From the NCBI GenBank assembly GCA_040954595.2, contig CM082591.2:10061309-10125308 (forward strand): 64,000 nucleotides of DNA, in the 5' to 3' direction. The notes beneath the pieces were generated by a model. That model did not search any database, had not been told where the DNA came from, and was given only the letters and a program-made list of their open reading frames with translations. This DNA is from Balanoglossus misakiensis. Taxonomy: Eukaryota; Animalia; Hemichordata. The translations under genes and the position numbers were made by a program. Of this stretch, positions 1 to 31,231 are shown one piece after another. Every line of letters starts with the position of its first letter. The first letter of the stretch is position 1.

Positions 1-172
1 TCACACAGTTCTATATGTTGTGAGCCAATAATGTGAATTTTCTATTTTTTATGTATTTTTTGTCTCTTTCCACATTATTGGTAGAAAATCTTCTTTTCTG
101 GAATTGATCAGCTGACTTATTTGAAATTTAGTATGAAGCTTCATAGGTGATCTGAGTTATCATAGTTTTGTA

Positions 173-600
173 AGGTCCCATTTGCTTTACCATGGGACCT
201 TATGATATCGGTGGATGTATGTATGTATGTCAAAAATATGCAAATTAGCTAGGAAAATGTGAAATTGGTCAAAACTCAAACTCAACAACCACTGGTCACA
301 TTGATTTGAAAATCAGTATGCATGTACCTTATGTCTACCTCAAACAGTCCTGTATGTTTTGAGCTAATATTATCGATTTTTAATTTTTTATGCCAAAAAT
401 CTTTTATGCATTTTTTGTATTTTTCCACATTATTGGTAAAGAAATCATCATTTCTAAAAGTTATAGGCCTCATTCTTTAAATTTTAGTATGAAGCTTCTA
501 ATGCTTGTCTGAGTAACCAAAGTTTTGTTCAAATTGTTGAAAAATTTGCATATTTTAATTTTGAGCAATTTTGCCATTTTTGGTCATTTTTTTTTCTTTA
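173..600 (+). mobile_element. Decayed non-autonomous Helentron/DINE-1-like (HINE) copy, 5' part
   Basis: Begins AGGTCCCATT...ACCATGGGACC (5' sub-TIR hairpin), then a (GTAT)n microsatellite and the AAATATGCAAATTAGC...AAATGTGAAATTGGTCAAAACTC core, all shared with the young copy at 43368-45083. Right boundary approximate. Confidence 0.65.
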
Positions 601-1819
601 AAACTGCATGCCAGATTGATTTGGTAGGCATATTCCTAAGGGTAAACTGAGTAAGATGTTGTAAAAATGTGATATTATATATTGTGTTATTGGAGAGGGG
701 GGGGGGGGGGAGGGTTACTCAAACATTTATAACACCCAGCAACTTTTGGTACTGGCAGTGTTTGTCCTCCAATGATTTCAACATCCTGCTAGGAATACAA
801 CCTCTCCTCAACTTCATAAATATAGGGCATGACATTGCAGGTTTTTTTAGAACACTGTTTAAAATAACCCTCATCAAGCCTGTTAACTTATTTAGACAGA
901 CTATTATCCAGAATGAAACGAAACATGAATGCAATAAAAAGATCTTGTGCAATAAAAACCAAGTTGATCATAACAATTATTTGCTACGTACAACATGTAC
1001 ATCACTAATAGAAGTTATGGCTATAAGCATAAACCTGTTTGTTTTGCTATCTTCACTATTCATGTTATCTGACTATATTAATACATTTGCAAGCATACTG
1101 TTTCAGACATAGCGAATTTGATAAACATCTACAAATATATTTTTACCTGTTGAAGTTATCAAAATCCAGACACTTGACAAAAGTAGATTTTTCATCCCCT
1201 CTATAGATTGATAGTCTAACATAACAGGCAATCTGTTTCTAACAACTGCAGAAGCCTTCATAAAAAGTTGTTGGCCAGAATGAAAGCTTGGGGGGACGTA
1301 GGATTTCCTACTTTTTAGGTTATTTTTTCTATGGCCCCAAAAAGTTATGACACAAAATTGATGACCCCCCTTGGAATTTATAATCCCCCCCCCCTTATCA
1401 TACCCTGTCCATATTCTTATAAATGTCAATAAACGCCATACGGTCCTGTATGTTTTGTTTTGAGCTAATATTATGAATTTTCTATTTTTATTGTTTTGTC
1501 TTTTACTGCATTATTGGTAAAAAAAATCTTCCTTTCTGAAAGCGATAGTTTTTGTTCAAATTGCAAATTGTTGTGAAATTGGTATATTTATAATTTTGAG
1601 CAATTTGTATCCATATTCAAATAAATATGAAAAGAAATTTCTCACAGATATTATTTACTTTGATAATACTATCATTCGTGCAACAACTAATCAATCAAAC
1701 AGTCAATAATCATAAATTGGGAGTTCAAAAATATCTATGAGGGAGATTTAAAACCCTGTTAGCAACAACTATTTGCCATGTTTTCAGTATTAATGTTTTG
1801 TGTAGCTTCTGCAGTTTTT

Positions 1820-2440
1820 AGGTCCCATTTGGTATGTACCATGGGCCTTATGGAATCAGTTGCGTCTGTATTTATGTATGGATGTACTGTATTTTCGCGA
1901 GTTAAATTTTTCGCGATATCGAGAGAGGCCACTGTATCGCGAGTATTAATTTTCGCGTTCTCTTATTTCATTCACTGCATCGTTAACTTCAAAAACAATT
2001 GACGTGACTTTTTATTTTCACGTTATTTTGGCTCTCGCGTATTTGGCGAAAATTAATTGCTCGCGAAAATAAAGTGTTTTACAGTATGTCTGTCTGTTTG
2101 TATGGATGTATGTCTGTATGTCCGTCCACATCAAAAACTTGAAAACCGTTGTGCGTATCACCTTGATATTTGGTGTGCAGATGCAGGCTGGGCTGTAGAT
2201 TGGAGTTTGTTAACATGAAGTTGTCATTACCAAATATATGCAAATTAGCTGGAAAAATGTGAAATTGGTCAAAACTCGCAAAACTCAACAACTGCTGGTC
2301 AGATTGATTTGGAAATTGGTATGCAAGTACCTTATGTCTACCTCATACAGTCCTGTATGTTTTGAGCTAATTTTGATTTTCTATTTTTGATGCATTTGTT
2401 TGTATTTTTCAACATTATTGGTAAAAAATCTTCATCTGAA
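1820..2440 (+). mobile_element. Second HINE-family copy (5' end), interrupted by a MITE
   Basis: TTTTT-AGGTCCCATTTGGTATGTACCATGGG start, GTAT/GGAT microsatellite, and GTCCGTCCACATCAAAAACTTGAAAACCG identical to the copy near 43485-43512. Right boundary approximate. Confidence 0.75.
1887..2084. mobile_element. Tc1/mariner-type MITE with TA target-site duplication
   Basis: TA|CTGTA...TACAG|TA termini and internal inverted repeats ATTTTCGCGAG / CTCGCGAAAAT; inserted in the microsatellite of the HINE copy. Confidence 0.75.
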
Positions 2441-4074
2441 TCTAAAATTACCGTCGAATCATCCAGTGTGAGTTAGCACTGTAATTAGCAAAAGTTATAA
2501 ATCCACAGTTACCCAGCAAATTTGATATAATGCTTCACATAGGTATTGGTTTTGAACATCCTTCAGAAAGGGTATGAATATTTTAAAATTTTTACTGTTG
2601 CAACCCAGACTAGTTTATTTCTGAATAAACAGAGAAATGACAACCGGATAGATTATTCTTCTGTACCAAAGACATATGCAGACACAAGAAATAGTCTGAA
2701 CATTATCAGTACATTACTAAAACAGTGTAGGTACATTGTACTATAAACTGAGGAAGATTAGTGACTATTGTTTGCCAAAAATTTTCCCAAGTCAGTTCTC
2801 AAGCATATCAGAATAGTAGCTTTGAGTAGCAAAGTGTGATGATTTAAAATGTAAAAAGACAACACCAATCTCTAGCTCTGCTCTCAGCACTGCAAAAGTT
2901 ATCAGACAGGTAGATAGATGTTCAGTCATCCTATGTCTGTCAACACTTTTCTTTTCTGAAATCACTGGTGCAAGTGCTTTCAAATTTGGTGTGCAGGTTT
3001 CTTGGGGTAGTGAAGTACTGCGTGTTCAAATTGTGTTGAATTCTGCATATTTGTAGTTTGGAACAATTTTTTGCTGTTTTTGGAAGAAAAAAGCTAAGCT
3101 CGTAGATTACTTTGACTTTGCAGGTTTCTAGGTATGACACAAGTTGTTTCTTCAAAATATGGTGAAATTTGCATATTTGGGAGGAAATTTTCTCTGAAAT
3201 TTAGTATGGATCTCCCTGAGGTATGTGACATAATCTGTAATTTTGTATTTTGGAGACAGTTGCCTTTTTATACAAACAAAAAATCTTGTCAGAATATGCA
3301 TGTCTGATTGCCATGTCCACAGGGGTGATCTAATTTTATTTACATTATAACCGAATCTGTAAAGTTTTCATAATGATCTTTAAAATAGGTACGTCTAATT
3401 GATTTGATGATTGGTATGAATTGTCCCTTGGTGATCATAGTCAATGCTTTTGAAATTCTGCTGAATATTGCATTATTATTTTGTCCGAGTCTGAATAGTA
3501 GTCATCTTCTCTGAAACCCCTTGACCTAAGTCAGGTGTCAAATAGTACAATTTGCAGATTTGTTGCATTGGAGATATTGTTGCAGTTTTTGAAATTCAAG
3601 ATGGCTGCCAATGTCTGTGTTAACTCTATGGAAAAACATTTATGTAAATACTTTTCTGAAAACAAGGTGGTGAACATCACATTTTTGTTTACAAACAGTA
3701 ATAGAAATAGCTATCATTGTTTCTTAAAATCTTAACTTGTAGGATTCTTTTTCAATCTCTGGCATCTGCAGAGACAATTAAACAACTCTATAAAAAGTCT
3801 TATTGCTTAGTACTGACACGAGGTGGTAAAAAGATGTGCAGCTTTTGACTTCTTACAGGCTTACACTTTGTTAGTAATATGAGTCCCTATTGGTATTGTG
3901 CTGGGTTTTTAGGAGCTTGGGCCCCATTCCCTGGATATTTTGTACACCTTGCTCTGAAAACCTGCCACACCTATGCTTCTTGAATTTGTCACAGTTGTCC
4001 TTGCCAATGAGTGTGCACCTTGAAATTCAAATCAGTCATTTGACCTGGCAGCCATATTCAATGGAAATTTTTAA

Positions 4075-5660
4075 ATTAATGCAAATTAGCTGGGAAAATT
4101 TGAAATTGGTCAAAACTCAGAAACTCGACAACCACTGGTCAGATTGATTTGACAATTGGTATGCAAGTACCTTATGTCAACCACATACAGTCCTGTATTT
4201 TGAATAGTTTGAATGTTCTATTTTTAATCATTTTTTGCCTTTTTCTTCATTTTTGGTAAAAAATCTACTTTTCTAGAATTGATGAGACGACTTCTTTGAA
4301 ATTTAGTATGAAGCTTCATATAGGTGATATGAGTTACCATACTTTTGTTAAAATGTAGGAAATTTGCATATTCATAATTTTGGAGCAATTTCGGCCTTTT
4401 TTTATTTTTTTTTTCTAAAACCGCTTGTTACATTGCTTTGAAATTTATTAGTCATATTAGGGGTAGCCCAAGTAAAATTTGCATGTATGTTTTTCAAATC
4501 AACTTGATGAATTGAATAGTATATTTTTGGGATGATTTTTGCCATTTTTGGTCAAAACTCTTCTCAGAACCCCCCACAGTACGTGAAATATCCCATGAAG
4601 CATTCTGATTTGTACAACCAGAGATTACTCGGTCAAACCAGGCAAAGTTCACATGTGTAGAGAAAATTGTAGACCACTAATACAAATTTTGAGAGCATGC
4701 TTTAAAGGCGAATGTTATTGTCAATTACCATTTCAAATGATAAACAAAATCATGCATTATTGAAAGAGGAGATACAAATTTTATAAAATAAGCAATTGCA
4801 TAGCCAGCCGATACAAAAAAGTTTGAAGTAAAACAGGGACACTTGAAACACTTGTTTAATCAAACAAAAAGATATTGATTTTTTTCTATTGACAGAACAA
4901 TGGAAATTTACATGTTAACTTTCAACAGAGACTGGCCACCTCAGTTAGTCATTGCTTCTTTCCTCTTAAGTGTGACATTTGACGTACATGAATGAATACT
5001 TTGATTTCTATGGCTTTTAAATTTTGATTTTGAAATTTTCACTCTAATTCCTCAACATAATTTTTCTAAATAAATCTTAATACAGTTATATGTACTTCAT
5101 ATCATTCTTAGTATCTAAAACAGAAAGTAATTAAATGGACAATCTCGATGATACAAATAATGGAGAATTGTGGGTAAAATATCGTACTGTTCCCCCTCTA
5201 CCCCCACTGCTTTAAAATTTGATTTAAAGGGTTCAGGGTTTGTTCTCATGATAATTTACAGATTGATTTGACAATTGGTATGCAAGTACCTTATTTCAAC
5301 CACATACAATCCTGTATTTTTTGAACTAATAGTTTGAATGTTCTATTTTATGCATTTTTTGCCTTTTTCCTCATTTGTGGTAAAAAATCTACTTTTCTAG
5401 AATTGATGAGTCAACTTCTTTGAAATTTTAGTATGAAGCTTCATATAGGTGATATGAGTTACAAGACTTTTGTTGAAATGTTGCAAAATTTGCATATTGA
5501 TAATTTTGGAGCAATTTCAGCCTTGTTTAATTAATTTTTTTTCTCTAAAACCGCTTGTTCCATTGCTTTAAAATTTGTTAGTCATGTTAGGGGTAGCTCA
5601 AGTAAGATTTGCATGTATGTTTTTCAAATCAACTTGATGAATTGAATAGTATATTTTTGA
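4075..5660 (+). repeat. Decayed HINE internal repeats, including a ~390-bp direct duplication (about 4140-4530 and 5260-5660)
   Basis: Both blocks run from AGATTGATTTGACAATTGGTATGCAAGTACCTTAT to CAACTTGATGAATTGAATAGTATATTTTTG with high similarity. Confidence 0.65.
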
Positions 5661-5663
5661 GGG

Positions 5664-5916
5664 ATCAAATCAAATCAAATCAAAACAAACATTTATAAAG
5701 CGCCAGAATCAATAACAATGTTATTTCCAAAGGCGCTGAAAGTATAACATCAGTGTTCGTAGGCTTTGACAAATAGAAATGTCTTGAGTTTTTGTTTGAA
5801 AATGTTGAGACTAGAAGCCTGTTGAATGTCAGATGGCAGAGAATTGTTTTGAGTCTGTACTTTGGTACACACAACTGGTTCCTTGAGCTGAAGCGCAGAG
5901 CCCGACTAGGCTTATA
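5664..5916 (-). mobile_element. 3' fragment of an L2/CR1-group LINE
   Basis: Minus strand translates YKPSRALRFSSRNQLCVPKYRLKT and, after a deletion/frameshift, NSLPSDIQQASSLNIFKQKLKTFLFVKAY, the typical L2/CR1 ORF2 C-terminus. It is followed by an AGCGCC...GGCGCT stem, TTATAAAT and a (TTTGA)n tail. Confidence 0.8.
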
Positions 5917-6393
5917 TGATTTTCGATTTGATTTGGTTTCAGGGTGTTTTCTCATGATGATTTACAAAACCTATGACTGTTTACTTTGAAATTTGAGTAG
6001 GAAGTTAATTGGATGTGTTTGTTTAGATAATGGAATCAAATAAAGTTATTCATTATTCACCTTCATTCTTCACCTCATTTCATTTATTGGCTGGTTTGTC
6101 TATTGTATCAGGGCAGAGTACTTGCCATCCCACCCCACCGATACAAACTTTGAGTGGCAAAAGAAAAATTTGTCGTAACATTGAGTTAATTTGCTTTTGG
6201 GCTCACTAAAATGCAACTTTGAGCTCTGTATTTGTACAAAATTTTCATTAATTGGCTGGTTTGTCTATTGTACCAGGCCAGCATACATAAGATCAAGATG
6301 TTTTCGGGGCTGGGGGCATCATATTTTATTGCCTCTCTATGTGTGTGTCTGTCTGTCTGTACTCCTGTGTAGACATTTTCTAGTGTAATCACT

Positions 6394-6427
6394 AAATGAG
6401 ACCACAGTGACCTTGACGCTATTTTTT
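6394..6427 (+). mobile_element. HINE-family 3' terminus
   Basis: AAATGAGACCACAGTGACCTTGACGCTATTTT closely matches AAATGGGACCACAGTGTCCTTGACGCTATTTT at 45056-45087. Confidence 0.75.
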
Positions 6428-6697
6428 GCGATTTTCAATGACCCCAGGGTAACCTTTGACCAGCTTTCATATATCTTGGTATTCACAGCAGAATACAGCC
6501 TTGGCATACCCTGGTAACCATGGGAACCGTTTGGGCCCCACCAATGGTGCTGGCAGCGTTAATTTTTAAATGATTTCTTCTTATCGTTTTCTTTATCAAT
6601 GATGATGACTTGATCTAATCAGATTATAAAAATAATTTCATTCTTTTTTTACATTAGGTTCTTTGGTAACACTGCTGCTGGTGGGAGTGTAAAATTG

Positions 6698-7206
6698 GTA
6701 ACGACGCCGCCACCTAATACTGTACTGGATAGATGAATTTAATACTTGTAACGACGCCGCCACCTAATACTGTACTGGAGGGATGAACTTAATACTTGTA
6801 ACGACGCCGCCACCTAATACTGTACTGGAGGGAGGAACTTAATACTTGTAACGACGCCGCCATCTAATACTGTACTGGAGGGAGGAACTTAATACTTGTA
6901 ACGACGCCGCCACCTAATACTGTACTGGAGGGAGGAACTTAATACTTGTAACGACGCCGCCACCTAATACTGTACTGGAGGGAGGAACTTAAACTTGTAA
7001 CGACGCCGCCACCTAATACTGTACTGGAGGGAGGAACTTAAACTTGTAACGACGCCGCCACCTAATACTGTACTGGAGGGAGGAACTTAATACTTGTAAC
7101 AACGCCGCCACCTAATACTGTACTGAAGGGAGGAACTTAAACTTGTAACGACGCCGCCACCTAATACTGTACTGGAGGGATGAACTTAATACTTGTAACG
7201 ACGCCA
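6698..7206. repeat. Minisatellite, 49-50-bp unit, about 10 copies
   Basis: Unit GTAACGACGCCGCCACCTAATACTGTACTGGAGGGAGGAACTTAATACTT repeated head to tail. Confidence 0.95.
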
Positions 7207-7387
7207 GATGATGCTTCTGTGACCAGAGGGATGAACGACGCCATGATTTGTTGATCTGATCTAATTAATAATATTCATCCTTTTTTTTCAATAGGTTCAT
7301 TGGTATTATCATCGCCGGAGGGAGTCTAATCAATATCTACAACAACGCCGCACCAGATAACAATATCAAAACCAGAGGGATGCAGTC

Positions 7388-7950
7388 AATAGGTTAGGCT
7401 AATAAAAATGGTTTAATCTGAGGGAATGGTAATAGGTTGGTGTATGAATATGTTAGGGTAATAAAAAATGGTATAATCTAACAGAATGGTGAAGGGTTGG
7501 TGTATGAATAGGTTAGGCTAATAAAAATGGTATAATCTAATGGAATGGTGAAGGGTTGGTGTATGATGACTAATAAAACAGTGTGCCCAAGGGTACTATA
7601 ACAAAACTGTCTGCAAGGGTATAATATTATGGTTTCAAGGGTATGATAAGTAATAAAAATACTATAAAATCATGAGTAATGCCACGTGGTAAATAAAAAC
7701 TGTACATGTACAGAGGGTAAATACCGGTATAATATATAAGGGTGTAAACATCAATGGTGTAATAATAAAAAATGGGTAACACAAGGTTTTGGTGGTATAA
7801 TAATAATAAAATGGTATTAACTTGATGGTATAAACATTATGGGATGTGTATAAATGGTGTTAATATTACAAAGGTATGATGATTAGTTGGGGTGTAATAA
7901 TAAGAAACTTAAAATCATTGGGTAATTTATTAGGGTCAGGTTGGGTATAA
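7388..7950. repeat. Degenerate ~59-bp tandem repeat grading into C-poor low-complexity sequence
   Basis: GGTTAGGCTAATAAAAATGGTATAATCT...GGAATGGTGAAGGGTTGGTGTATGA occurs about 3 times, followed by recurring GGTATAAT/TAATAAAA motifs. Confidence 0.75.
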
Positions 7951-7986
7951 TAATTGTTGCTATGCATTCGTGTAATAATTGTCTGC

Positions 7987-8185
7987 GGATTTTTTGCAGC
8001 ATTACCCGCGTTCGCGTTCTTCATTGCAGGTCGCTCGTCGTGTAATGGAATTTCGCCGTGTGCCCGTTTGATTCGCCGATGGATTTTTTACAACGTTACC
8101 CGCGTTCGCGTTCTTCATCGCAGTTCGCTCGTCGTGTAATGGAATTTCGTTGTGTGCCCGGTTGATTCGCCGATGGATTTTTTGC
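7987..8185. repeat. CpG-rich ~75-bp tandem repeat, about 2.5 copies
   Basis: TTACCCGCGTTCGCGTTCTTCAT...GCTCGTCGTGTAATGGAATTTCG...GTGTGCCCG.TTGATTCGCCGATGGATTTTTT repeated. Confidence 0.85.
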
Positions 8186-8609
8186 TTTCGTCATCGTAAT
8201 TCCCGCATCAACACGAATCCTCAATCTCACGCAACAACAATACATCAAAATGTACACAGAAAAATAGGAGTCGGCAAGACAATTCTGGTTAGTTTGAGCC
8301 CCAACCTTTTAAAATTCACAACGGGGTAGGGGGCAGTTTTTCCTCATTTTATATTTGGCTCGAGGTTTTTAACTGTCCCCAGGCGCGTAAAGTTAGTTAG
8401 TTTATCACACATAATGTAATTATCTTGCTTGATTTAAAAAACACTAAAATTGTATGGGGGAGCTTCTTGCGATTTGCACTTAAGAAACTGATGGTTTTTA
8501 CCCATAGATAATATTTAGTATTAAGCACATAATTGCCTGGAAATAAAAATTAACTCAAGGGTAGAATGCAACAGTTAATTTTGTGCAATATCAACAGGAG
8601 CTATTTTGG

Positions 8610-8876
8610 CACATTTTTTCAGTTTGATAAACACTGTTTTTGCTCATTGTTTCATTTCGACCACATTATTTCAGTTTGATAAACACTGTTTTTGCTCATT
8701 GTTTCATTTCGACCACTTTTGTCACCTTGTTTCAAATTGAATGCTGTTTGACCACTATACTTGGGGTAATTGTTCCAAATTGGTATGCAAGATATTTTAC
8801 ATCAGCAGTTAGCCATCTAGCCACACTTTAGCTGCACAGCATATGAAAAATAATGAAATTCATGCAAAAAGCAAAA
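8610..8876 (+). ncRNA. Candidate MALAT1-like ENE/triple-helix 3'-end element (two U-rich hairpins plus A-rich tract)
   Basis: 52-bp duplicated unit TTTTTT-CAGT(TTGATAAAC)ACTG-TTTTTGCT (8614-8644; second copy 8666-8696), followed downstream by AAAAAGCAAAA at 8866-8876, the same tract that ends MALAT1. Folding done by eye only. Confidence 0.4.
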
Positions 8877-8933
8877 AAGTATTATGGGTATAATGCCATT
8901 GCAGCATTGGCGGTTCGACTCCGTCGATACTTA
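8877..8933 (+). ncRNA. mascRNA/menRNA-like tRNA-like structure (not a canonical tRNA)
   Basis: Acceptor AAGTATT/GATACTT (7 bp), mini D region ATGGGTAT, stem AATGC/GCATT with 7-nt loop, no variable loop, T-arm GGCGG-TTCGACT-CCGTC. Starts on the base right after AAAAAGCAAAA. Confidence 0.55.
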
Positions 8934-9115
8934 CTTTGAAGCATAAGTCTTCATTATTTTTCATATGTAATAAATAAAACTATTCCAAATTCATATCTTT
9001 GTTTTCAGTTAGTGCTTTTGCTTCAGTTAGGGGGCCCACACTTACCAAACCTGTCTTGCCATCTTTTCACATTTCTTCAACAGTAGGCAGTATTTGATCA
9101 AATTGACCCACAAAT

Positions 9116-12100
9116 CACTCAAAATTAATAGGCAGGATACTGTCCACTCTGGCCTGGTTACTGTCTGGCCAGGTTAATGTTGACGCAAAGGTTGACCACA
9201 CCAAACACTCAAAATTAACGGGCACGACACTGGCCACTCTGGCCTGGTTAATTAATGTTGACGCAAAGGTTGACCCCACCAAACACTCAAAATTAATGGG
9301 CACGACACTGGCCACTCTGGCCTGGTTAATCAATGCTGACGCAAAGGTTGACCCCACCAAACACTCAAAATTAATGGGCACGACACTGGCCACAAGCTCT
9401 GGCCTGGTTAATCAATGCTGACGCAAAGGTTGACCCCACCAAACACTCAAAATTAATTGGCACGACACTGGCCACTAGCTCTGGCCTGGTTAATCAATGC
9501 TGACGCAAAGGTTGACCCCACCAAACACTCAAAATTAATGGGCACGACACTGGCCACAAGCTCTGGCCTGGTTAATCAATGCTGACGCAAAGGTTGACCC
9601 CACCAAACACTCAAAATTAATGGGCACGACACTGGCCACTAGCTCTGGCCTGGTTAATCAATGCTGACGCAAAGGTTGACCCCACCAAACACTCAAAAGT
9701 AATGGGCACGACACTGGCCACTAGCTCTGGCCTGGTTAATCAATGCTGACGCAAAGGTTGACCCCACCAAACACTCAAAATTAATGGGCACGACACTGGC
9801 CACTAGCTCTGGCCTGGTAAATCAATGCTGACGCAAAGGTTGACCCCACCAAACACTCAAAATTAATGGGCACGACACTGGCCACTAGCTCTGCATGGCC
9901 TGGTTAATCAATGCTGACGCAAAGGTTGACCCCACCAAACACTCAAAATTAATGGGCACGACACTGGCCACTAGCTCTGCATGGCCTGGTTAATCAATGT
10001 TGACGCAAAGGTTGACCCCACCAAACACTCAAAATTAATGGGCACGACACTGGCCACTAGTTCTGCATGGCCTGGTTAATCAATGTTGACGCAAAGGTTG
10101 ACCCCACCAAACACTCAAAATTAATGGGCACGACACTGGCCACTAGCTCTGCATGGCCTGGTTAATCAATGTTGACGCAAAGGTTGACCCCACCAAATAC
10201 TCAAAATTAATGGGCACGACACTGGCCACTAGCTCTGCATGGCCTGGTTAATCAATGTTGACGCAAAGGTTGACCCCACCAAACACTCAAAATTAATGGG
10301 CACGACACTGGCCACTAGCTCTGCATGGCCTGGTTAATCAATGTTGACGCAAAGGTTGACCCCACCAAACACTCAAAATTGATGGGCACGACACTGGCCA
10401 CTAGCTCTGGCCTAGGTTATCAATGTTGACGCAAAGGTTGACCCCACCAAACACTCAAAATTGATGGGCACGACACTGGCCACTAGCTCTGCATGGCCTG
10501 GCTAATCAAGGTTGACGCAAAGGTTGACCCTACCAAACAGTCAAAATTAATGGGCACGACACTGGCCACTAGCTCTGGCCCGGTTAAGCAATGCTGACGC
10601 AAAGGTTGACCCCACCAAACACTCAAAATTAATGGGCACGACACTGGCCACTAGCTCTGGCCTGGTTAATCAATGCTGACGCAAAGGTTGACCCCACCAA
10701 ACACTCAAAATTAATGGGCATGACACTGGCCTCTAGCTCTGCCCTGGTTAATCAATGCTGACGCAAAGGTTGACCCCACCAAACACTCAAAATTAATGGG
10801 CACGACACTGGCCACTAGCTCTGGCCTTGTTAATCAATGCTGACGCAAAGGTTGACCCCACCAAACACTCAAAATTAATGGGCACGACACTGGCCACTAG
10901 CTCTGCATGGCCTGGTTAATCAATGCTGACGCGAAGGTTGACCCCACCAAACACTCAAAATTAATGGGCACAACACTGGCCACTAGCTCTGCATGGCCTG
11001 GTTAATCAATGTTGACGCAAAGGTTGACCCCAGCAAACACTCAAAATTGATGGGCACGACACTGGCCACTAGCTCTGCATGGCCTGGTTAATCAATGTTG
11101 ACGCAAAGGTTGACCCCACCAAACACTCAAAATTGATGGGCACGACACTGGCCACTAGCTCTGGCCTAGCTAATCAATGTTGACGCAAAGGTTGACCCCA
11201 CCAAACACTCAAAATTGATGGGCACGACACTGGCCACTAGCTCTGCATGGCCTGGTTAATCAATGCTGACGCAAAGGTTGACCCCACCAAACACTCAAAA
11301 TTAATGGGCATGACACTGGCCACTAGCTCTGGCCTGGTTAATCAATGCTGACGCAAAGGTTGACCCCACCAAACACTCAAAAGTAATGGGCACAACACTG
11401 GCCACTAGCTCTGCATGGCCTGGTTAATCAATGCTGACGCAAAGGTTGACCCCACCAAACACTCAAAATTAATGGGCACGACACTGGCCACTAGCTCTGG
11501 CCTGGTAAATCAATGCTGACGCAAAGGTTGACCCCACCAAACACTCAAAATTAATGGGCACGACACTGGCCACTAGCTCTGCATGGCCTGGTAAATCAAT
11601 GCTGACGCAAAGGTTGACCCCACCAAACACTCAAAATTAATGGGCACGACACTGGCCACTAGCTCTGCATGGCCTGGTTAATCAATGTTGACGCAAAGGT
11701 TGACCCCACCAAACACTCAAAATTAATGGGCACGACACTGGCCACTAGTTCTGCATGGCCTGGTTAATCAATGTTGACGCAAAGGTTGACCCCACCAAAC
11801 ACTCAAAATTAATGGGCACGACACTGGCCACTAGCTCTGCATGGCCTGGTTAATCAATGTTGACGCAAAGGTTGACCCCACCAAATACTCAAAATTAATG
11901 GGCACGACACTGGCCACTAGCTCTGCATGGCCTGGTTAATCAATGTTGACGCAAAGGTTGACCCCACCAAACACTCAAAATTGATGGGCACGACACTGGC
12001 CACTAGCTCTGGCCTAGGTAATCAATGTTGACGCAAAGGTTGACCCCACCAAACACTCAAAATTGATGGGCACGACACTGGCCACTAGCTCTGCATGGCC

Positions 12101-13152
12101 TGGCTAATCAAGGTTGACGCAAAGGTTGACCCTACCAAACAGTCAAAATTAATGGGCACGACACTGGCCACTAGCTCTGGCCTGGTTAAGCAATGCTGAC
12201 GCAAAGGTTGACCCCACCAAACACTCAAAATTAATGGGCACGACACTGGCCACTAGCTCTGGCCTGGTTAATCAATGCTGACGCAAAGGTTGACCCCACC
12301 AAACACTCAAAATTAATGGGCACGACACTGGCCTCTAGCTCTGCCCTGGTTAATCAATGCTGACGCAAAGGTTGACCCCACCAAACACTCAAAATTAATG
12401 GGCACGACACTGGCCACTAGCTCTGGCCTTGTTAATCAATGCTGACGCAAAGGTTGACCCCACCAAACACTCAAAATTAATGGGCACGACACTGGCCACT
12501 AGCTCTGCATGGCCTGGTTAATCAATGCTGACGCAAAGGTTGACCCCACCAAACACTCAAAATTAATGGGCACAACACTGGCCACTAGCTCTGCATGGCC
12601 TGGTTAATCAATGTTGACGCAAAGGTTGACCCCACCAAACACTCAAAATTGATGGGCACGACACTGGCCACTAGCTCTGGCCTGGCTAATCAATGTTGAC
12701 GCAAAGGTTGACCCCACCAAACACTCAAAATTGATGGGCACGACACTGGCCACTAGCTCTGCATGGCCTGGTTAATCAATGTTGATGCAAAGGTTGACCC
12801 CACCAAACACTCAAAATTGATGGGCACGACACTGGCCACTAGCTCTGGCCTGGCTAATCAATGTTGACGCAAAGGTTGACCCCACCAAACACTCAAAATT
12901 GATGGGCACGACACTGGCCACTAGCTCTGCATGGCCTGGTTCATCAATGTTGATGCAAAGGTTGACCCCACCAAACACTCAAAATTGATGGGCACGACAC
13001 TGGCCACTAGCTCTGCATGGCCTGGTTAATCAATGTTGACGCAAAGGTTGACCCCACCAAACACTCAAAATTGATGGGCACGACACTGGCCACTAGCTCT
13101 GCATGGCCTGGTTAATCAATGTTGACGCAAAGGTTGACCCCACCAAACACTC
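9116..13152. repeat. Satellite array, 78/82/86-bp monomers, about 48 copies
   Basis: Unit CACTCAAAATTAATGGGCACGACACTGGCCACTAGCTCTG(CATG)GCCTGGTTAATCAATGYTGACGCAAAGGTTGACCCCACCAAA; 82-bp period measured at 9362-9444. Confidence 0.98.
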
Positions 13153-14835
13153 TTTGGCTGTATTTCAATTTGTTCGTGGTAAATTAATTTTGTGGAGGTG
13201 ACCGGCACTGAAGCTCTTAGCTAGGATGAGGTGGGATGGAAAAATGCCCCATTTTAGCTGTTTTAAAATATACGACTATTTATAGACAAAAGGAAAATAA
13301 AACAAGCGCAAAAACATACCAAACTAGTTTTATTAATTAAAAATAAAAATTGCTGAGTAAAGGTTTTCATGTGGGCATTCACTTTGAACTTGCTAAATTA
13401 CTTTAAAGAGACAAAGTCGCTCTCTCTTTGACCTTTTGCGATGATGGAATGCTTGCTTGAAGTCTCTCGTGCAATAAATGATGTCGATTCATACATGTAT
13501 GGATGGTGTATAGGTGGTCGGAATTTACATGTCTTTGCCACGACCAAACCAACAACACGTAAAATCAAAGTTTGGGTCATGAAATCGAGTTTTGTTACAG
13601 TCTAGAATTTCATGCCACCCCTTATGGTCATATTATTCTTGGTTGGCAAAAGTGACAAGTAGTCAAGTTTCAACACAGGCAACATTTTCTTACAAACAAA
13701 CCACACAGAAGACATCAAAAGGGAGAGAATTATAGAATGGTCAATGTGTGAAAAGTTAAGATACGTAAAGTGGCCGGGTTCAACATTAACTCATCGACTT
13801 CATATCGTCTTCATGCCATGGTTTTTGCCTGCCCTGAAAGTTCCTGTCGTTGCAGAAGTGGTTTTGACAGAAAGAATTTAGTCTTCCGGGATGTTTGTGA
13901 TTATTTGAACACCAGACAATACAATGCAACCTTGACTTCCAAAATACTTACCGGCATTGCATTATCTTACCATGGTTAGGCCTACAGTGAACAAATTTTC
14001 AACAATATTTTCTGAGTTACCGCTGATATTTGTTTTGTAGTATGGATATTAAATTATACATCCCGATACAAAACAGAATGTTATAGAATCCTTCCTGAGT
14101 GATAATGAAAAAATTACCGGAATGCTACCGCCTAATCTATGGTTAGGGTTATTGCTATTATTTTATATCAGTAATCGACTTTGTGTATATCAATGTCATT
14201 TTCATAACGAAAATGAACTCGAGTCTAATGTAAACGTTACGAATTGATCGAAAGGCGCTCTGATGAATGTTAACACGAGTGCGCAGTGACAAGACATGCA
14301 TCGTGCATGACAGTGACAACAGTTCCTATAGAGCAGTTAAAAAATAAACCGGCCGTCCGTAAATTTATCAGCTATATTTTTTTTTATTTAGTCACGTTTT
14401 CCCTGTTGCATGCTATTAGTTCAGGGGCCAGTTTTAGCAGTGCTCTATTGAGTACTTTCGTATCGATGGATTGATCTCTCGTCCAATCAGAATGGCGGAT
14501 GGTAGCATGATCCGACATATTGCGTATTACAATAGGGCTTCCTCATACAGGTCAGAACGGAGAGGTCATTCCTTTTATTTTAGGACGTCTCAGCTCCTTT
14601 GTCTTTTCTGTTATAGTGTTAAAGAAATCAAACGGTTTTGTTTTGGCCGGTAAACACCGATGGATTAACTCTTAAGTCCATCGTGCATCCAAACGCAGTC
14701 GAGTCGGTTTGGTCATTGTTTATGCGACAGTAAATGCCAAATGTGACAGAAGCATCATATTAAATGAGATAGAATACACAAACAAACAAACATACGAATA
14801 AACAAACAGGTAAACAAACAAACAAACAACCATTA

Positions 14836-15085
14836 GGGACTGTTCAGAATTTACTTCCAAGTTGGGGATGGAGGATTTTTTACTTTCCTGGTGATTTTTT
14901 TCCATGGTCTCCCCTAGTAAATTGTGGAGGAAATATGTGGTCCCTCCTTAAATTTCCTGGGGATTTTCCATGGTCCCCCTATTGTGACTTTTATGTCTAG
15001 TCTCCCCTAATTTGTCTTGGAGAAAATGGGTGGTCTCCCCCTCTGAAAATTCTCCGCCCCCTGGAAGTAAATTCTGAACAGTCCC
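14836..15085. mobile_element. PIF/Harbinger-type MITE (~250 bp), one per macrosatellite unit
   Basis: 24-bp TIR GGGACTGTTCAGAATTTACTTCCA / TGGAAGTAAATTCTGAACAGTCCC flanked by TTA on both sides (14833-14835 and 15086-15088). Confidence 0.85.
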
Positions 15086-15189
15086 TTATTAAAGCCAACA
15101 GCTAGCACCATGGCTTCTCTGCCAGAGGAGCGATAACATCGACAAAATGCAGATACACAAGAAATGAGCACTTTATTCCACAAGTGAAG

Positions 15190-15277
15190 TAGTCTGTTCC
15201 CTGCCCCATTCCCACCGCTGGCTGCGCCCTTTAGCGTAGCGCCGATGGCAGTGGGAATGGGGCAGGGGACCAGACTA
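15190..15277. mobile_element. 88-bp Academ (AcademH-type) non-autonomous mini-element, one per unit
   Basis: TAGTCTG...CAGACTA termini, a ~26-bp near-perfect TIR, and a 9-bp direct repeat CAAGTGAAG on both sides (15181-15189 and 15278-15286). TAG..CTA ends with a 9-10-bp TSD are characteristic of AcademH. Confidence 0.75.
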
Positions 15278-18200
15278 CAAGTGAAGAACCCCAGTAACAG
15301 ACGTAACGAACAAACAAACTACATGTACTAACAACAAAGCAAGAAAAGTGTCAAGCGTCGTCAAAGAAAACGAAAAAGTTCTAGCATGGTTGGTAAAAGT
15401 TATTGGTGGAAAACGAATAGGGCCTTCTACAAATGAGGTCTCAGACCCGTAAACGCCACCAGAACACAAAACACATGCACAGAACAGTTTAAGCCGGTTG
15501 TTGTATGGAGCAGCAATAATCTGCGGTTGGGCCGTCGTAGATTTTCGCTGGTGGTGAAAATAAATAAAACACGATCGATGTTCGATTTATTCCAGATCAC
15601 ATGCGTTTACGGCCAGGAGAGAGCATAAAAGTCTTCAAATAACCATGTGGTGGCGCACTTTTTCCGATTGGCTGTATTTCAATTTGTTCGTGGTAAATTA
15701 ATTTTGTGGAGGTGACCGGCACTGAAGCTCTTAGCTAGGATGAGGTGGGATGGAAAAATGCCCCATTTTAGCTGTTTTAAAATATACGACTATTTATAGA
15801 CAAAAGGAAAATAAAACAAGCGCAAAAACATACCAAACCTAGTTTTATTAATTAAAAACAAAATTGCTGAGTAAAGGTTTTCATGTGGGCATTCACTTTG
15901 AACTTGCTAAATTAATTAAAAGAGACGAAGTCGCTCTCTCTTTGTCCTTTTGCGATGATAGAATGCTTGCTTGAAGTCTCTCGTGCAATAAATGATGTCG
16001 ATTCATACATGTATGGATGGTGTATAGGTGGTCGGAATTTACATGTCTTTGCCACGACCAAACCAACAACACGTAAAATCAAAGTTTGGGTCATTAAATC
16101 GAGTTTTGTTACAGTCTAGAATTTCATGCCACCCCTTATGGTCATATTATTCTTGGTAGGCAAAAGTGACAAGTAGTCACGTTATAACACAGGCAACATT
16201 TTTTACAAACAAACCACACAGAAGACATCAAAAGGGAGAGAATTATAGAATGGTCAATGTGTGAAAAGTTAAGATACGTAAAGTGGCCGGGTTCAACATT
16301 AACTCATCGACTTCATATCGTCTTCATGCCATGGTTTTTGCCTGCCCTGAAAGTTCCTGTCGTTGCAGAAGTGGTTTTGACAGAAAGAATTTAGTCTTCC
16401 GGGATGTTTGTGATTATTTGAACACCAGACAATACAATGCAACCTTGACTTCCAAAATACTTACCGGCATTGCATTATCTTACCATGGTTAGGCCTACAG
16501 TGAACAAATTTTCAACAATATTTTCTGAGTTACCGCTGATATTTGTTTTGTAGTATGGATATTAAATTATACATCCCGATACAAAACAGAATGTTATAGA
16601 ATCCTTCCTGAGTGATATTGAAAAAATTACCGGAATGCTACCGCCTAATCTATGGTTAGGGTTATTGCTATTATTTTATATCAGTAATCGACTTTGTGTA
16701 TATCAATGTCATTTTCATAACGAAAATGAACTCGAGTCTAATGTAAACGTTACGAATTGATCGAAAGGCGCTCTGATGAATGTTAACACGAGTGCGCAGT
16801 GACAAGACATGCATCGTGCATGACAGTGACAACAGTTCCTATAGAGCAGTTAAAAAATAAACCGGCCGTCCGTAAATTTATCAGCTATATTTTTTTTATT
16901 TAGTCACGTTTTCCCTGTTGCATGCTATTAGTTCAGGGGCCAGTTTTAGCAGTGCTCTATTGAGTACTTTCGTATCGATGGATTGATCTCTCGTCCAATC
17001 AGAATGGCGGATGGTAGCATGATCCGACATATTGCGTATTACAATAGGGCTTCCTCATACAGGTCAGAACGGAGAGGTCATTCCTTTTATTTTAGGACGT
17101 CTCAGCTCCTTTGTCTTTTCTGTTATAGTGTTAAAGAAATCAAACGGTTTTGTTTTGGCCGGTAAACACCGATGGATTAACTCTTAAGTCCATCGTGCAT
17201 CCAAACGCAGTCGAGTCGGTTTGGTCATTGTTTATGCGACAGTAAATGCCAAATGTGACAGAAGCATCATATTAAATGAGATAGAATACACAAACAAACA
17301 AACATACGAATAAACAAACAGGCAAACAAACAAACAAACAACCATTAGGGACTGTTCAGAATTTACTTCCAAGTTGGGGATGGAGGATTTTTTATTTTCC
17401 TGGTGATTTTTTTCCATGGTCTCCCCTAGTAAATTGTGGAGGAAATATGTGGTCCCTCCTTAAATTTCCTGGGGATTTTCCATGGTCCCCCTATTGTGAC
17501 TTTTATGTCTAGTCTCCCTTAATTTGTCTTGGAGAAAATGGGTGGTCTCCCCCTCTGAAAATTCTCCGCCCCCTGGAAGTAAATTCTGAACAGTCCCTTA
17601 TTAAAGCCAACAGCTAGCACCCTGGCTTCTCTGCCAGAGGAGCGATAACATCGACAAAATGCAGATACACAAGAAATGAGCACTTTATTCCACAAGTGAA
17701 ATAGCCTGTTCCCTGCCCCATTCCCACCGCTGGCTGCGCCCTTTAGCGTAGCGCCGATGGCAGTGGGAATGGGGCAGGGGACCAGACTACAAGTGAAGAA
17801 CCCCAGTAACAGACGTAACGAACAAACAAACTACATGTACTAACAACAAAGCAAGAAAAGTGTCAAGCGTCGTCAAAGAAAACGAAAAAGTTCTAGCATG
17901 GTTGGTAAAAGTTATTGGTAGAAAACGAATAGGGCCTTCTACAAATGACGTCTCAGACCCGCAAACGCCACCAGAACACAAAACACATGCACAGAGCAGT
18001 TTAAGCCGGTTGTTGTATGGAGCAGCAATAATCTGCGGTTGGGCCGTCGTAGATTTTCGCTGGTGGTGAAAATAAATAAAACACGATCGATGTTCGATTT
18101 ATTCCAGATCACATGCGTTTACGGCCAGGAGAGAGCATAAAAGTCTTCAAATAACCATGTGGTGGCGCATATTTTCCGATTGGCTGTATTTCAATTTGTT

Positions 18201-21200
18201 CGTGGTAAATTAATTTTGTGGAGGTGACCGGCACTGAAGCTCTTAGCTAGGATGAGGTGGGATGGAAAAATGCCCCATTTTAGCTGTTTTAAAATATACG
18301 ACTATTTATAGACAAAAGGAAAATAAAACAAGCGCAAAAACATACCAAACCTAGTTTTATTAATTAAAAACAAAATTGCTGAGTAAAGGTTTTCATGTGG
18401 GCATTCACTTTGAACTTGCTAAATTAATTAAAAGAGACAAAGTCGCTCTCTCTTTGTCCTTTTGCGATGATAGAATGCTTGCTTGAAGTCTCTCGTGCAA
18501 TAAATGATGTCGATTCATACATGTATGGATGGTGTATAGGTGGTCGGAATTTACATGTCTTTGCCACGACCAAACCAACAACACGTAAAATCAAGTTTGG
18601 GTCATTAAATCGAGTTTTGTTACAGTCTAGAATTTCATGCCACCCCTTATGGTCATATTATTCTTGGTAGGCAAAAGTGACAAGTAGTCAAGTTTCAACA
18701 CAGGCAACATTTTTTACAAACAAACCACAAAGAAGACATCAAAAGGGAGAGAATTATAGAATGGTCAATGTGTGAAAAGTTAAGATACGTAAAGTGGCCG
18801 GGTTCAACATTAACTCATCGACTTCATATCGTCTTCATGCCATGGTTTTTGCCTTCCCTGAAAGTTCTTGTCGTTGCAGAAGTGGTTTTGACAGAAAGAA
18901 TTTAGTCTTCCGGGATGTTTGTGATTATTTGAACACCAGACAATACAATGCAACCTTGACTTCCAAAATACTTACCGGCATTGCATTATCTTACCATGGT
19001 TAGGCCTACAGTGAACAAATTTTCAACAATATTTTCTGAGTTACCGCTGATATTTGTTTTGTAGTATGGATATTAAATTATACATCCCGATACAAAGCAG
19101 AATGTTATAGAATCCTTCCTGAGTGATATTGAAAAAATTACCGGAATGCTACCGCCTAATCTATGGTTAGGGTTATTGCTATTATTTTATATCAGTAATC
19201 GACTTTGTGTATATCAATGTCATTTTCATAACGAAAATGAACTCGAGTCTAATGTAAACGTTACGAATTGATCGAAAGGCGCTCTGATGAATGTTAACAC
19301 GAGTGCGCAGTGACAAGACATGCATCGTGCATGACAGTGACAACAGTTCCTATAGAGCAGTTAAAAAATAAACCGGCCGTCCGTAAATTTATCAGCTATA
19401 TTTTTTTTATTTAGTCACGTTTTCCCTGTTGCATGCTATTAGTTCAGGGGCCAGTTTTAGCAGTGCTCTATTGAGTACTTTCGTATCGATGGATTGATCT
19501 CTCGTCCAATCAGAATGGCGGATGGTAGCATGATCCGACATATTGCGTATTACAATAGGGCTTCCTCATACAGGTCAGAACGGAGAGGTCATTCCTTTTA
19601 TTTTATGACGTCTCAGCTCCTTTGTCTTTTCTGTTATAGTGTTAAATAAATCAAACGGTTTTGTTTTGGCCGGTAAACACCGATGGATTAACTCTTAAGT
19701 CCATCGTGCATCCAAACGCAGTCGAGTCGGTTTGGTCATTGTTTATGCGACAGTAAATGCCAAATGTGACAGAAGCATCATATTAAATGAGATAGAATAC
19801 ACAAACAAACAAACATACGAATAAACAAACAGGCAAACAAACAAACAAACAACCATTAGGGACTGTTCAGAATTTACTTCCAAGTTTGGGATGGAGGATT
19901 TTTTATTTTCCTGGTGATTTTTTTCCATGGTCTCCCCTAGTAAATTGTGGAGGAAATATGTGGTCCCTCCTTAAATTTCCTGGGGATTTTCCATGGTCCC
20001 CCTATTGTGACTTTTATGTCTAGTCTCCCCTAATTTGTCTTGGAGAAAATGGGTGGTCTCCCCCTCTGAAAATTCTCCGCCCCCTGGAAGTAAATTCTGA
20101 ACAGTCCCTTATTAAAGCCAACAGCTAGCACCCTGGCTTCTCTGCCAGAGGAGCGATAACATCGACAAAATGCAGATACACAAGAAATGAGCACTTTATT
20201 CCACAAGTGAAGTAGTCTGTTCCCTGCCCCATTCCCACCGCTGGCTGCGCCCTTTAGCGTAGCGCCGATGGCAGTGGGAATGGGGCAGGGGACCAGACTA
20301 CAAGTGAAGAACCCCAGTAACAGACGTAACGAACAAACAAACTACATGTACTAACAACAAAGCAAGAAATGTGTCAAGCGTCGTCAAAGAAAACGAAAAA
20401 GTTCTAGCATGGTTGGTAAAAGTTATTGGTAGAAAACGAATAGGGCCTTCTACAAATGACGTCTCAGACCCGCAAACGCCACCAGAACACAAAACACATG
20501 CACAGAACAGTTTAAGCCGGTTGTTGTATGGAGCAGCAATAATCTGCGGTTGGGCCGTCGTAGATTTTCGCTGGTGGTGAAAATAAATAAAACACGATCG
20601 ATGTTCGATTTATTCCAGATCACATGCGTTTACGGCCAGGAGAGAGCATAAAAGTCTTCAAATAACCATGTGGTGGCGCACTTTTTCCGATTGGCTGTAT
20701 TTCAATTTGTTCGTGGTAAATTAATTTTGTGGAGGTGACCGGCACTGAAGCTCTTAGCTAGGATGAGGTGGGATGGAAAAATGCCCCATTTTAGCTGTTT
20801 TAAAATATACGACTATTTATAGACAAAAGGAAAATAAAACAAGCGCAAAAACATACCAAACCTAGTTTTATTAATTAAAAACAAAATTGCTGAGTAAAGG
20901 TTTTCATGTGGGCATTCACTTCGAACTTGCTAAATTAATTAAAAGAGACAAAGTCGTTCTCTCTTTGTCCTTTTGCGATGATAGAATGCTTGCTTGAAGT
21001 CTCTCGTGCAATAAATGATGTCGATTCATACATGTATGGATGGTGTATAGGTGGTCGGAATTTACATGTCTTTGCCACGACCAAACCAACAACACGTAAA
21101 ATCAAAGTTTGGGTCATTAAATCGAGTTTTGTTACAGTCTAGAATTTCATGCCACCCCTTATGGTCATATTATTCTTGGTAGGCAAAAGTGACAAGTAGT

Positions 21201-22818: not shown

Positions 22819-23318
22819 TGTTACCGTCTCCTAATTCGTCGTTATTTCGATGTAGACTCTTACTCACTGTCAGTTCGTAGAGTCTAAAGTCAGTTGAGGT
22901 ACCACTCAGGATCGTAATACTTTCAGTAACTGAGACGGACACAAAGTGTTCAATTTCAAATCATCAACTCAGGCTTTAATCATCGAACCGTTACTCAAGG
23001 CTCCTCCAAGTTGAATCAACTCAAAAGTGTACAATACTCATATTCTAAAGTCAAAATTGCATCAGCTTACAATGAGTCATTTTCTAAAATTAGAAAGTTC
23101 AATGCTCTATGCTGGATCATACGATGTTCATCTCTAGGTAATAAAATCATAATATCGTCATAGTATTTGTTGTATCTAGGTAATAAAATTCCAACGCCAT
23201 CGCCGCTTGACTCCAACACGTGAGGTACGCTGTAATTTTGGTTCCAGGGACCACAATAATTTTATTTATTACGCAACCAAACAAAACGGTTAAAATGCGG
23301 GTGTATGAGGGCGTAACA
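22819..23318 (-). repeat. 3' LTR
   Basis: Direct repeat of 30732-31231; only one substitution noticed (ATCAGCTT vs ATCAACTT). Confidence 0.96.
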
Positions 23319-23333
23319 CTCTTCCACCCTTTT
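23319..23333 (-). promoter_or_regulatory. Polypurine tract (PPT)
   Basis: Minus strand AAAAGGGTGGAAGAG directly abuts the 3' LTR. Confidence 0.9.
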
Positions 23334-23495
23334 AATAACCAGCGTCCTCGCTGGTCCAAATGAAGATCGGCGGGACGTTGAACTTCTATGTCCTAGGAGA
23401 GTAATAATTCCAATAAATTCTCGTATCTAAATAACTCAAAATAAAAAGAAAATACATGAGATGATTAATATGGGTAAATAATAGTTAACATAGTA

Positions 23496-23531
<36 letters not shown>

Positions 23532-23654
23532 AATTAAAATGCCTCATAATATGTATGTCAATTCTAAAAATACATAATTCTTATTTCTAAAGTAAATATA
23601 TGGGAAAACTAGTGACATGTTCAACAATCTATTCATAATTCTACGAGCAAACCG

Positions 23655-25055: not shown

Positions 25056-25219
25056 GGAGAAAAGGGGTGCAATAAATACGCAGTATCGCGACTATCTAAG
25101 ATGAGGATCACGCTATATAGGAGTAATCTCTAGAGAAAAACGAGTATGATGTTGACAAAAGAGATGAATTTTACGACTATGACGCATTCTCATTCTTTTC
25201 TTGCTCAAATACATATTTC

Positions 25220-30690: not shown

Positions 30691-30719
30691 ATATTCGTGT
30701 CGCTCAGTTACTCCGGATG

Positions 30720-30728
30720 TCTCCACCA
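30720..30728 (-). promoter_or_regulatory. Primer-binding site, probably tRNA-Ala
   Basis: TGGTGGAGA lies 3 nt inside the 5' LTR boundary and is complementary to a ...TCTCCACCA tRNA 3' end. Confidence 0.7.
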
Positions 30729-30731
30729 ATT

Positions 30732-31231
30732 TGTTACCGTCTCCTAATTCGTCGTTATTTCGATGTAGACTCTTACTCACTGTCAGTTCGTAGAGTCTAA
30801 AGTCAGTTGAGGTACCACTCAGGATCGTAATACTTTCAGTAACTGAGACGGACACAAAGTGTTCAATTTCAAATCATCAACTCAGGCTTTAATCATCGAA
30901 CCGTTACTCAAGGCTCCTCCAAGTTGAATCAACTCAAAAGTGTACAATACTCATATTCTAAAGTCAAAATTGCATCAACTTACAATGAGTCATTTTCTAA
31001 AATTAGAAAGTTCAATGCTCTATGCTGGATCATACGATGTTCATCTCTAGGTAATAAAATCATAATATCGTCATAGTATTTGTTGTATCTAGGTAATAAA
31101 ATTCCAACGCCATCGCCGCTTGACTCCAACACGTGAGGTACGCTGTAATTTTGGTTCCAGGGACCACAATAATTTTATTTATTACGCAACCAAACAAAAC
31201 GGTTAAAATGCGGGTGTATGAGGGCGTAACA
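30732..31231 (-). repeat. 5' LTR
   Basis: 500-bp direct repeat of 22819-23318 with TG...CA ends. Confidence 0.96.

Follow-up and report, generated by a model that had tools for sequence, protein, structure and literature searches.

A mascRNA-type cloverleaf as a candidate RNase P/Z processing signal in a multi-copy non-coding repeat of an acorn worm

We analysed a stretch of 64,000 nucleotides from the hemichordate Balanoglossus misakiensis (contig CM082591.2, positions 10,061,309 to 10,125,308; hereafter the window, in whose own numbering all positions are given) and found a minimal tRNA-like cloverleaf of the mascRNA type on its + strand. On balance, we favour the reading that positions 8839–8968 act as a signal for processing by RNase P and RNase Z, close to the 3′ end of a non-coding unit that is present in many copies. 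We hold a fuller version more tentatively and regard it as rather doubtful, namely that an amplified family of acorn-worm non-coding RNAs is cut by RNase P at the mascRNA-like fold, clamped by a 30-bp leader–trailer duplex and then triplex-capped on AAAAAGCAAAA.

The cloverleaf spans 57 nt (8877–8933) and is directly abutted, at offset 0, by an A-rich tract of the MALAT1 type (8866–8876, + strand). All seven pairs of its acceptor stem (8877–8883/8926–8932) form, one of them as G·U. The D region (8884–8891) has 8 nt, with GGG at 8886–8888, and the middle hairpin (8892–8908) consists of a 5-bp stem and a 7-nt loop. It is followed, in the absence of a variable loop, by a 17-nt T-arm with a 5-bp stem (8909–8925), and an unpaired, discriminator-like A (A8933) closes the element. 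The letters of the A-tract, acceptor, D region, middle stem and T-arm were all found where the preliminary description of this DNA had placed them. The assignment of 8877–8933 as a cloverleaf draws on the sequence, on a geometry screen, on a weak match to the Rfam tRNA model and on a hand-read comparison with a diverged relative; the A-tract has the same letters in the main form of the family, in four public sequencing runs (X1–X4), and is changed in that relative.

The Rfam tRNA model delimits exactly 8877–8933, although weakly (11.5 bits against a cut-off of 29; E value 5.4). ARAGORN found no tRNA in the window, and Rfam had no match in it at the gathering level. The Rfam model for mascRNA and menRNA (RF01684), one of the checks that the preliminary description had proposed, gave no match at E values up to 10; a control locus, L164, scored 60.8 bits. 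The T-arm contains a perfect box B, and the same 17 letters are found in ordinary bacterial tRNA-Val and tRNA-Phe. A tRNA origin is likely because of these shared letters, and such an origin does not indicate function. The best box A upstream of the T-arm agrees with the consensus at 6 of 9 positions. A degenerate full-length tRNA starting at about 8862 was rejected by inspection, as its acceptor would fail to pair.

tRNA-derived SINE heads are repeat families with a perfect box B, and the preliminary description had named the head of such a SINE as an identity that would overturn its proposal. The element does not appear to be one: box A reaches at most 6/9, and family homology begins about 600 nt upstream, near 8274. 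A related reading is that of a tRNA-derived remnant in a DNA palindrome, whose T-arm is kept as box B (a TFIIIC site or a piece of a Pol III promoter, for example as a boundary beside heterochromatin) and whose stems are an old inverted repeat. We consider this quite improbable. It would suit the perfect box B and the bacterial-type letters around it, the foldback nature of the whole stretch and the presence of an 86-bp satellite 170 nt away, but it is at odds with the poor box A and with several changes in the diverged relative, to which we return below.

We estimated how often such an arrangement should arise by chance. The A-tract alone is at chance level (present in 25 of 100 shuffles), as is the T-loop motif alone. 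A second-order Markov model built on the first 9.1 kb predicts about 3.8 bare minimal cloverleaves per Gb, but about 4.5×10−5 per Gb once the A-tract at zero offset is required as well; the model takes no account of DNA that is palindromic or derived from tRNA. For an empirical control we collected loci with the A-tract followed by the T-loop motif from viral contigs (58 loci) and metagenome contigs (120 of about 340 loci, in 23 of 64 parts), and screened them for three features: a T stem of 5 bp, an acceptor starting at offset 0 in which no fewer than 6 of 7 pairs form, and a middle stem. Only 2 of the 128 distinct matches, window included, passed this screen: the window and L164. No invertebrate homologue came out of the viral scans, of the metagenome scan (120 of about 340 loci) or of a prokaryote scan, where the 6 loci checked out of 62 were all ordinary tRNA genes. 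A functionless chance arrangement in AT-rich repeat DNA is, in our view, largely refuted and hardly credible. It is compatible with the chance level of each single motif, with the roughly four bare cloverleaves per Gb and with a predicted minimum fold that differs from the cloverleaf, but not easily with the joint expectation of 4.5×10−5 per Gb, nor with the survival of the structure in a relative that differs at about one-third of the core places.

L164 (291–358, − strand) comes from a metagenome contig of 658 nt and is itself a MALAT1-like module of the vertebrate type, whose ENE is complete and includes a long hairpin; on account of this ENE and of its RF01684 score we used it as the positive control. 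Its U-rich strands lie about 170 nt apart, far more than the 30-nt hairpin of mammals. A plain MAFFT alignment of the window with L164 misplaces the registers of the arms and was left out of the analysis.

An 18-bp perfect inverted repeat (8840–8857/8950–8967), which the preliminary description had overlooked, continues the acceptor stem, so that leader and trailer together form a duplex of about 30 pairs. Its leader arm (8839–8871, + strand) contributes 22 + 4 + 4 pairs separated by small internal loops, and its trailer arm occupies 8934–8968 (+ strand); both are indicated by the inverted repeat (I2), by the predicted fold and by paired changes in the relative. The base directly before the predicted RNase P cut is left unpaired, in the window member and in the diverged relative alike. 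Two overlapping AATAAA hexamers (8969 and 8973; together 8969–8978, + strand) and a U/GU-rich stretch form a candidate poly(A) signal for the uncut precursor; in the diverged relative the second hexamer has no listed change and the first has one.

The fold of 8830–8980 has an energy of −43.9 kcal/mol (z −5.78), reached by 0 of 200 shuffles and equalled by 0.5% of 3000 position pairs in the flanks. Being a long hairpin does not in itself set the module apart in this genome, since a stronger one, CpG-rich and probably a small inverted-repeat element, lies at about 1800–1960 (−45.7 kcal/mol per 137 nt). As for the cloverleaf itself, ViennaRNA favoured a rod (−17.2 kcal/mol) over it (−12.4 kcal/mol), with pair probabilities of 0.02 for the T stem and 0.00 for the middle stem, and the deficit of 4.8 kcal/mol remains within the precursor. 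The control cloverleaf of L164 came within 0.8 kcal/mol of its own minimum. A rival 7-bp hairpin at 8879–8896 (−2.6 kcal/mol) was set aside, as it is not evident in the diverged relative.

That the mascRNA-type cloverleaf is under structural constraint is supported by covariation in one relative. We aligned this relative by hand, choosing the register to fit the structure; it is a single relative seen in two runs (X1 and X2) of the same sample, and for the middle stem and one 4-bp helix the result hinges on the chosen register. Over 8778–9006, in X1 and X2 alike, it shows 34 differing letters plus 9 gaps (the X1 listing has 31 substitutions and 8 gaps, the ninth gap being taken from the X2 rows). 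The 88-nt core has 31 changed places, yet none is listed within the 17-nt T-arm (P 2.3×10−4 for this fixed place, and 0.007 for any clean run of at least 17).

The relative's acceptor retains 7/7 pairs, with pair 2 changed from A-U to G-C and pair 6 from U-A to U·G. Its middle stem has five pairs made with other letters, through three two-sided changes and one A-U to G·U change, and closes a UUU loop, which is a tendency of mascRNA (PMC11693755). The D region is 6 nt long with a UUGG loop, and the cloverleaf as a whole 51 nt; the GG in the D region and the absence of linker bases are found in both members. In the duplex, three two-sided changes fall in the inner 4-bp helix, which stays in place, and one in the next helix; in the outer stem two pairs become G·U and one breaks. 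By hand count, the 46 shared pairs comprise 31 unchanged, 8 with two-sided changes, 5 changed to or from G·U and 2 broken. Changed pairs that still pair therefore number 13 of 15 (P 3×10−4 at a chance of 0.4 for each, and 9×10−6 to 4×10−3 over 0.3–0.5).

The preliminary description had looked to homologues for compensatory stem changes, and this one hand-aligned relative provides them, the acceptor stem, middle stem and duplex being kept by paired changes. All five one-sided changes go via G·U and therefore point to an RNA made from the + strand. DNA palindrome repair predicts neither these one-sided changes nor a middle stem kept with other letters, and the invariance covers the whole T-arm, beyond the 11-bp box; both speak against a box B remnant. 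The A-rich leader of the relative lacks the central GC and AAAAAGCAAAA, and ends in seven A's followed by CAG. In another relative about 115 letters replace the 119 at 8829–8947 (record coordinates), too diverged for display.

The relative bears also on the possibility of a Drosha/Dicer-type hairpin precursor of which the cloverleaf is merely the loop. Such a precursor could be read into the approximately 37 paired steps, into an outer stem whose sequence is better conserved in the diverged relative than the core, and into the 18.2 bits scored on a microRNA model, a weak match given its cut-off of 94 bits. We consider it very improbable, however, since it leaves the unchanged T-arm and the kept four-way junction unexplained, and the stem is very AU-rich.

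Paralogues, which the preliminary description had proposed to look for, are present in public contigs as a multi-copy family, unlike the single-gene MALAT1. We read the family from public runs, the stretch being found in four runs of two studies, none recorded as RNA. Three RNA runs (X7, X10 and X11) had 0 reads on it, but they carry the label of another organism and therefore do not bear on its transcription. In X1, whose kind is guessed to be DNA and whose depth is no copy number, the main form has a depth of about 2800–3200 over 8200–9090, its sub-variants at 8667–8787 have depths of 2346 and 575, and the diverged relatives have depths of 43–293. Compared with the window, the main form has about 10 differing places in 890 nt, none of them in 8778–8981. 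Its depth exceeds that of the two relatives 30- and 12-fold in X1 and 22- and 35-fold in X2, or 12–35-fold overall. Provided that the runs are DNA, the main form is probably an amplified repeat. The main alleles in runs X3 and X4, at a depth of about 3 (a thousandth of X1), are probable cross-talk and give no independent support.

The span shared with diverged family members, in blocks, is approximately 8274–9006, as judged from contig pieces, joints and loose ends: one relative begins aligning at 8274, and two end at about 8994–9006. It is bracketed by an 80% inverted repeat (I1, 8273–8302/9031–9060). In Pfam, 0 of 57 ORFs (out of 61 of at least 55 aa in 1–15700) scored above the cut-off. A single X1 contig runs across both predicted cuts at a depth of 3231, with no drop relative to 2772–2921 upstream, and in X2 the depth rises downstream of the predicted cuts, from 10,381 to 20,183 and still higher as the satellite is approached. 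If these runs, guessed to be DNA, were RNA, the abundant form would be uncut.

The depth without a drop across the predicted cuts would suit a tRNA mimic that is never cut. Such a mimic would be a structural part of the RNA of a mobile or satellite-linked repeat, placed near the 3′ end of that RNA, and would be bound by tRNA-binding or tRNA-modifying proteins, or act as a template or priming structure when the element is copied. An uncut mimic also fits the position of a multi-copy family on the border of a satellite block, the inverted repeat at the edge of family homology, and a 30-bp duplex that would keep the cut pieces joined and compete with a triplex. We nevertheless consider it unlikely, as both members have a coaxial arm of 7 + 5 bp and an unpaired base before position 1, which are what RNase P needs, and as coding capacity is lacking (the same 0 of 57 ORFs).

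The surroundings of the module are repetitive. An 86-bp satellite of about 46 copies (9100–13152) starts approximately 170 nt downstream of it, and the rest of the window (13154–64000) is a tandem array with a 2.5-kb unit, whose copies are about 98–99% alike and each carry two short inverted-repeat elements, with no Rfam or Pfam match. This array is interrupted by an LTR element, a LINE fragment (about 58144–59834) and a 238-bp array (43912–45021). The LTR element, of the Ty3/gypsy type (22819–31231, − strand), is apparently intact, with LTRs 99.8% alike, a 4-bp target duplication, gag, and pol with a chromodomain; a third ORF after pol, in the env position (23655–25091, 478 aa), has hydrophobic stretches and no Pfam match. 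The LINE reverse transcriptase (58274–59857) matches Saccoglossus kowalevskii at 63% identity over 66% of the query, which bears out the invertebrate setting surmised in the preliminary description; among the 120 matches listed, four are closer (67–78%) and the remainder are at 42–51%. Upstream, 6650–8200 contains short tandem arrays (50 bp ×10, 59 bp ×3 and 94 bp ×2), polypyrimidine-AG sites near 6658 and 7292 that resemble 3′ splice sites, and a CpG-rich stretch (7980–8210). These features are possibly the 5′ part of the unit that carries the cloverleaf module.

For the processing signal that we favour, the following course of events can be proposed. In the maturation of mascRNA and menRNA, the enzymes read an acceptor of 7 bp that stacks on the 5-bp T stem, together with a canonical T loop and a GG in the D loop. 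The + strand would be transcribed by Pol II up to the AATAAA hexamers at 8969–8978. RNase P would then cut at 8876/8877, leaving an upstream non-coding RNA with a genomically encoded A-rich 3′ end, and RNase Z would cut after 8933, freeing a 57-nt tRNA-like RNA to which CCA may be added. The duplex of about 30 bp may help the fold to form and may shield the newly made end for as long as the trailer persists; during that time it would also compete with any triplex. In this subfamily, the U-rich units at 8614–8701 could then join the freed A-tract in a short triplex; this is the weakest step.

We examined the triplex step separately. The preliminary description had reported upstream U-tract/hairpin units; they are present, but prove to be the two copies of one 52-bp tandem duplication (8610–8716, 98% alike). 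The first (8614–8649, + strand) comprises six U's, a weak hairpin (−1.0 kcal/mol) and UUUUUGCU, and is a candidate triple-helix partner; the second (8666–8701, + strand) is the other ENE-like copy. The stretch that follows (8713–8800) holds older, diverged copies of the U-rich unit, and 8777–8791 has 14–15 letters in common with a dispersed repeat at 2313, 4154 and 5273, so the U-rich region may derive from that repeat.

A full ENE with a triple helix, as the preliminary description had envisaged, does not emerge from these units. The upper stem is worth −1.0 kcal/mol and no clear lower stem was found in them. Each unit offers at most six U's as a third strand and no C for a C·G-C triple, so that at most 4–5 terminal triples are possible; the MALAT1 triple helix has nine U·A-U triples and one C·G-C triple (PMC7583470). 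The Watson–Crick strand matches the A-tract at 10 of 12 positions in the window allele, a chance-level match (reached in 421 of 5000 simulated sequences and 4 of 28 real flank tiles), and the A-rich leader of the relative is different. No better ENE partner was found near the A-tract; among duplex partners in 1–8840 the two units rank 7th and 8th. In the commonest X1 form, C8697T raises the match from 10/12 to 11/12 (37 of 5000 simulated), and relatives align over about 8592–8627, across the first U-tract, diverging on both sides. These two observations mildly favour a triplex.

Trimming of an animal RNA's 3′ end by the tRNA machinery has so far been reported only for vertebrate MALAT1 and NEAT1, and here it likely operates outside vertebrates. 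If so, this processing route originated earlier than the vertebrates, or it arose by convergence; if the triplex-capped reading were also true, the module would date to the deuterostome ancestor, perhaps borne by a mobile repeat, or would have arisen twice. In either case the origin of the MALAT1 3′ module becomes testable, with a repeat family suggested as its carrier, and the long leader–trailer duplex may be a second way of protecting an end made by RNase P. Since standard Rfam and BLAST searches miss the module, other invertebrate cases may be hidden. Nothing comparable from an invertebrate turned up in the literature searched, which took in few subscription papers, so an earlier mention may exist.

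We compared the window element with known systems. In PMC12941219, MALAT1 and NEAT1 are called the only lncRNAs matured by tRNA machinery, and in PMC10869381, MALAT1 is found by BLAST in jawed vertebrates only and is absent from lampreys. In human MALAT1 the A-tract pairs with a 7-nt trailer, leaving a bulged A before the cut, an arrangement needed for efficient maturation, and the cut falls about 0.4 kb before the poly(A) site (PMC8457004); mascRNA likewise has an unpaired base before the cut (PMC8457004, and PMC11693755, whose arm spans we used for comparison). The window element resembles MALAT1/NEAT1 in its A-rich tract placed at zero offset before a cloverleaf with a 7-bp acceptor and a short GG-bearing D arm, in the lack of linkers and of a variable loop, and in a canonical 17-nt T-arm that is the most conserved part. 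It also shares leader–trailer pairing, the unpaired base before the cut, a downstream poly(A) signal and an upstream UUUUGCU motif.

There are differences as well. The U-rich units are linked to the A-tract by 165–220 nt here, compared with about 24–30 in mammals (PMC12941219). The D region has 6–8 nt, in contrast to 10–11 in the MALAT1/NEAT1 module, and the leader–trailer duplex has about 30 bp, in another register, compared with 7 in MALAT1. Within the window family, unlike in MALAT1/NEAT1, the A-tract is probably not fixed among members, being different in the one readable relative, the ENE is incomplete and RF01684 has no match; with both the RF01684 score and a complete ENE missing, we do not file the element as a MALAT1 homologue. 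Nor did we see SCYL1/FRMD8 synteny, as there was no kinase or FERM match in 57 of the 61 ORFs of at least 55 aa in 1–15700, and satellite and transposons make up what remains of the window. MALAT1 is a single gene, whereas the window element is multi-copy and lies beside satellites in a hemichordate.

Multi-copy MALAT1-like loci (tancRNAs) were reportedly described by Zhang et al. in 2017 in the anole lizard and other vertebrates. The tancRNAs resemble the present family in having many dispersed 3′-module loci and no single syntenic gene; they differ in reportedly having been found by a model that demands both triple helix and cloverleaf, whereas the present family has a doubtful triplex and an invertebrate host. 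Compared with tRNA-derived SINE heads, the window element has no box A, carries its cloverleaf near the 3′ end of a unit of about 730 nt, and has stems that covary. We know of no A-tract or long leader–trailer duplex in the t-elements of plant mitochondria. These are organellar and tied to mRNAs, but they offer the same principle as the one proposed here, tRNA-like folds that serve as RNase P/Z cut signals and thereby define the ends of RNAs (PMC1920247).
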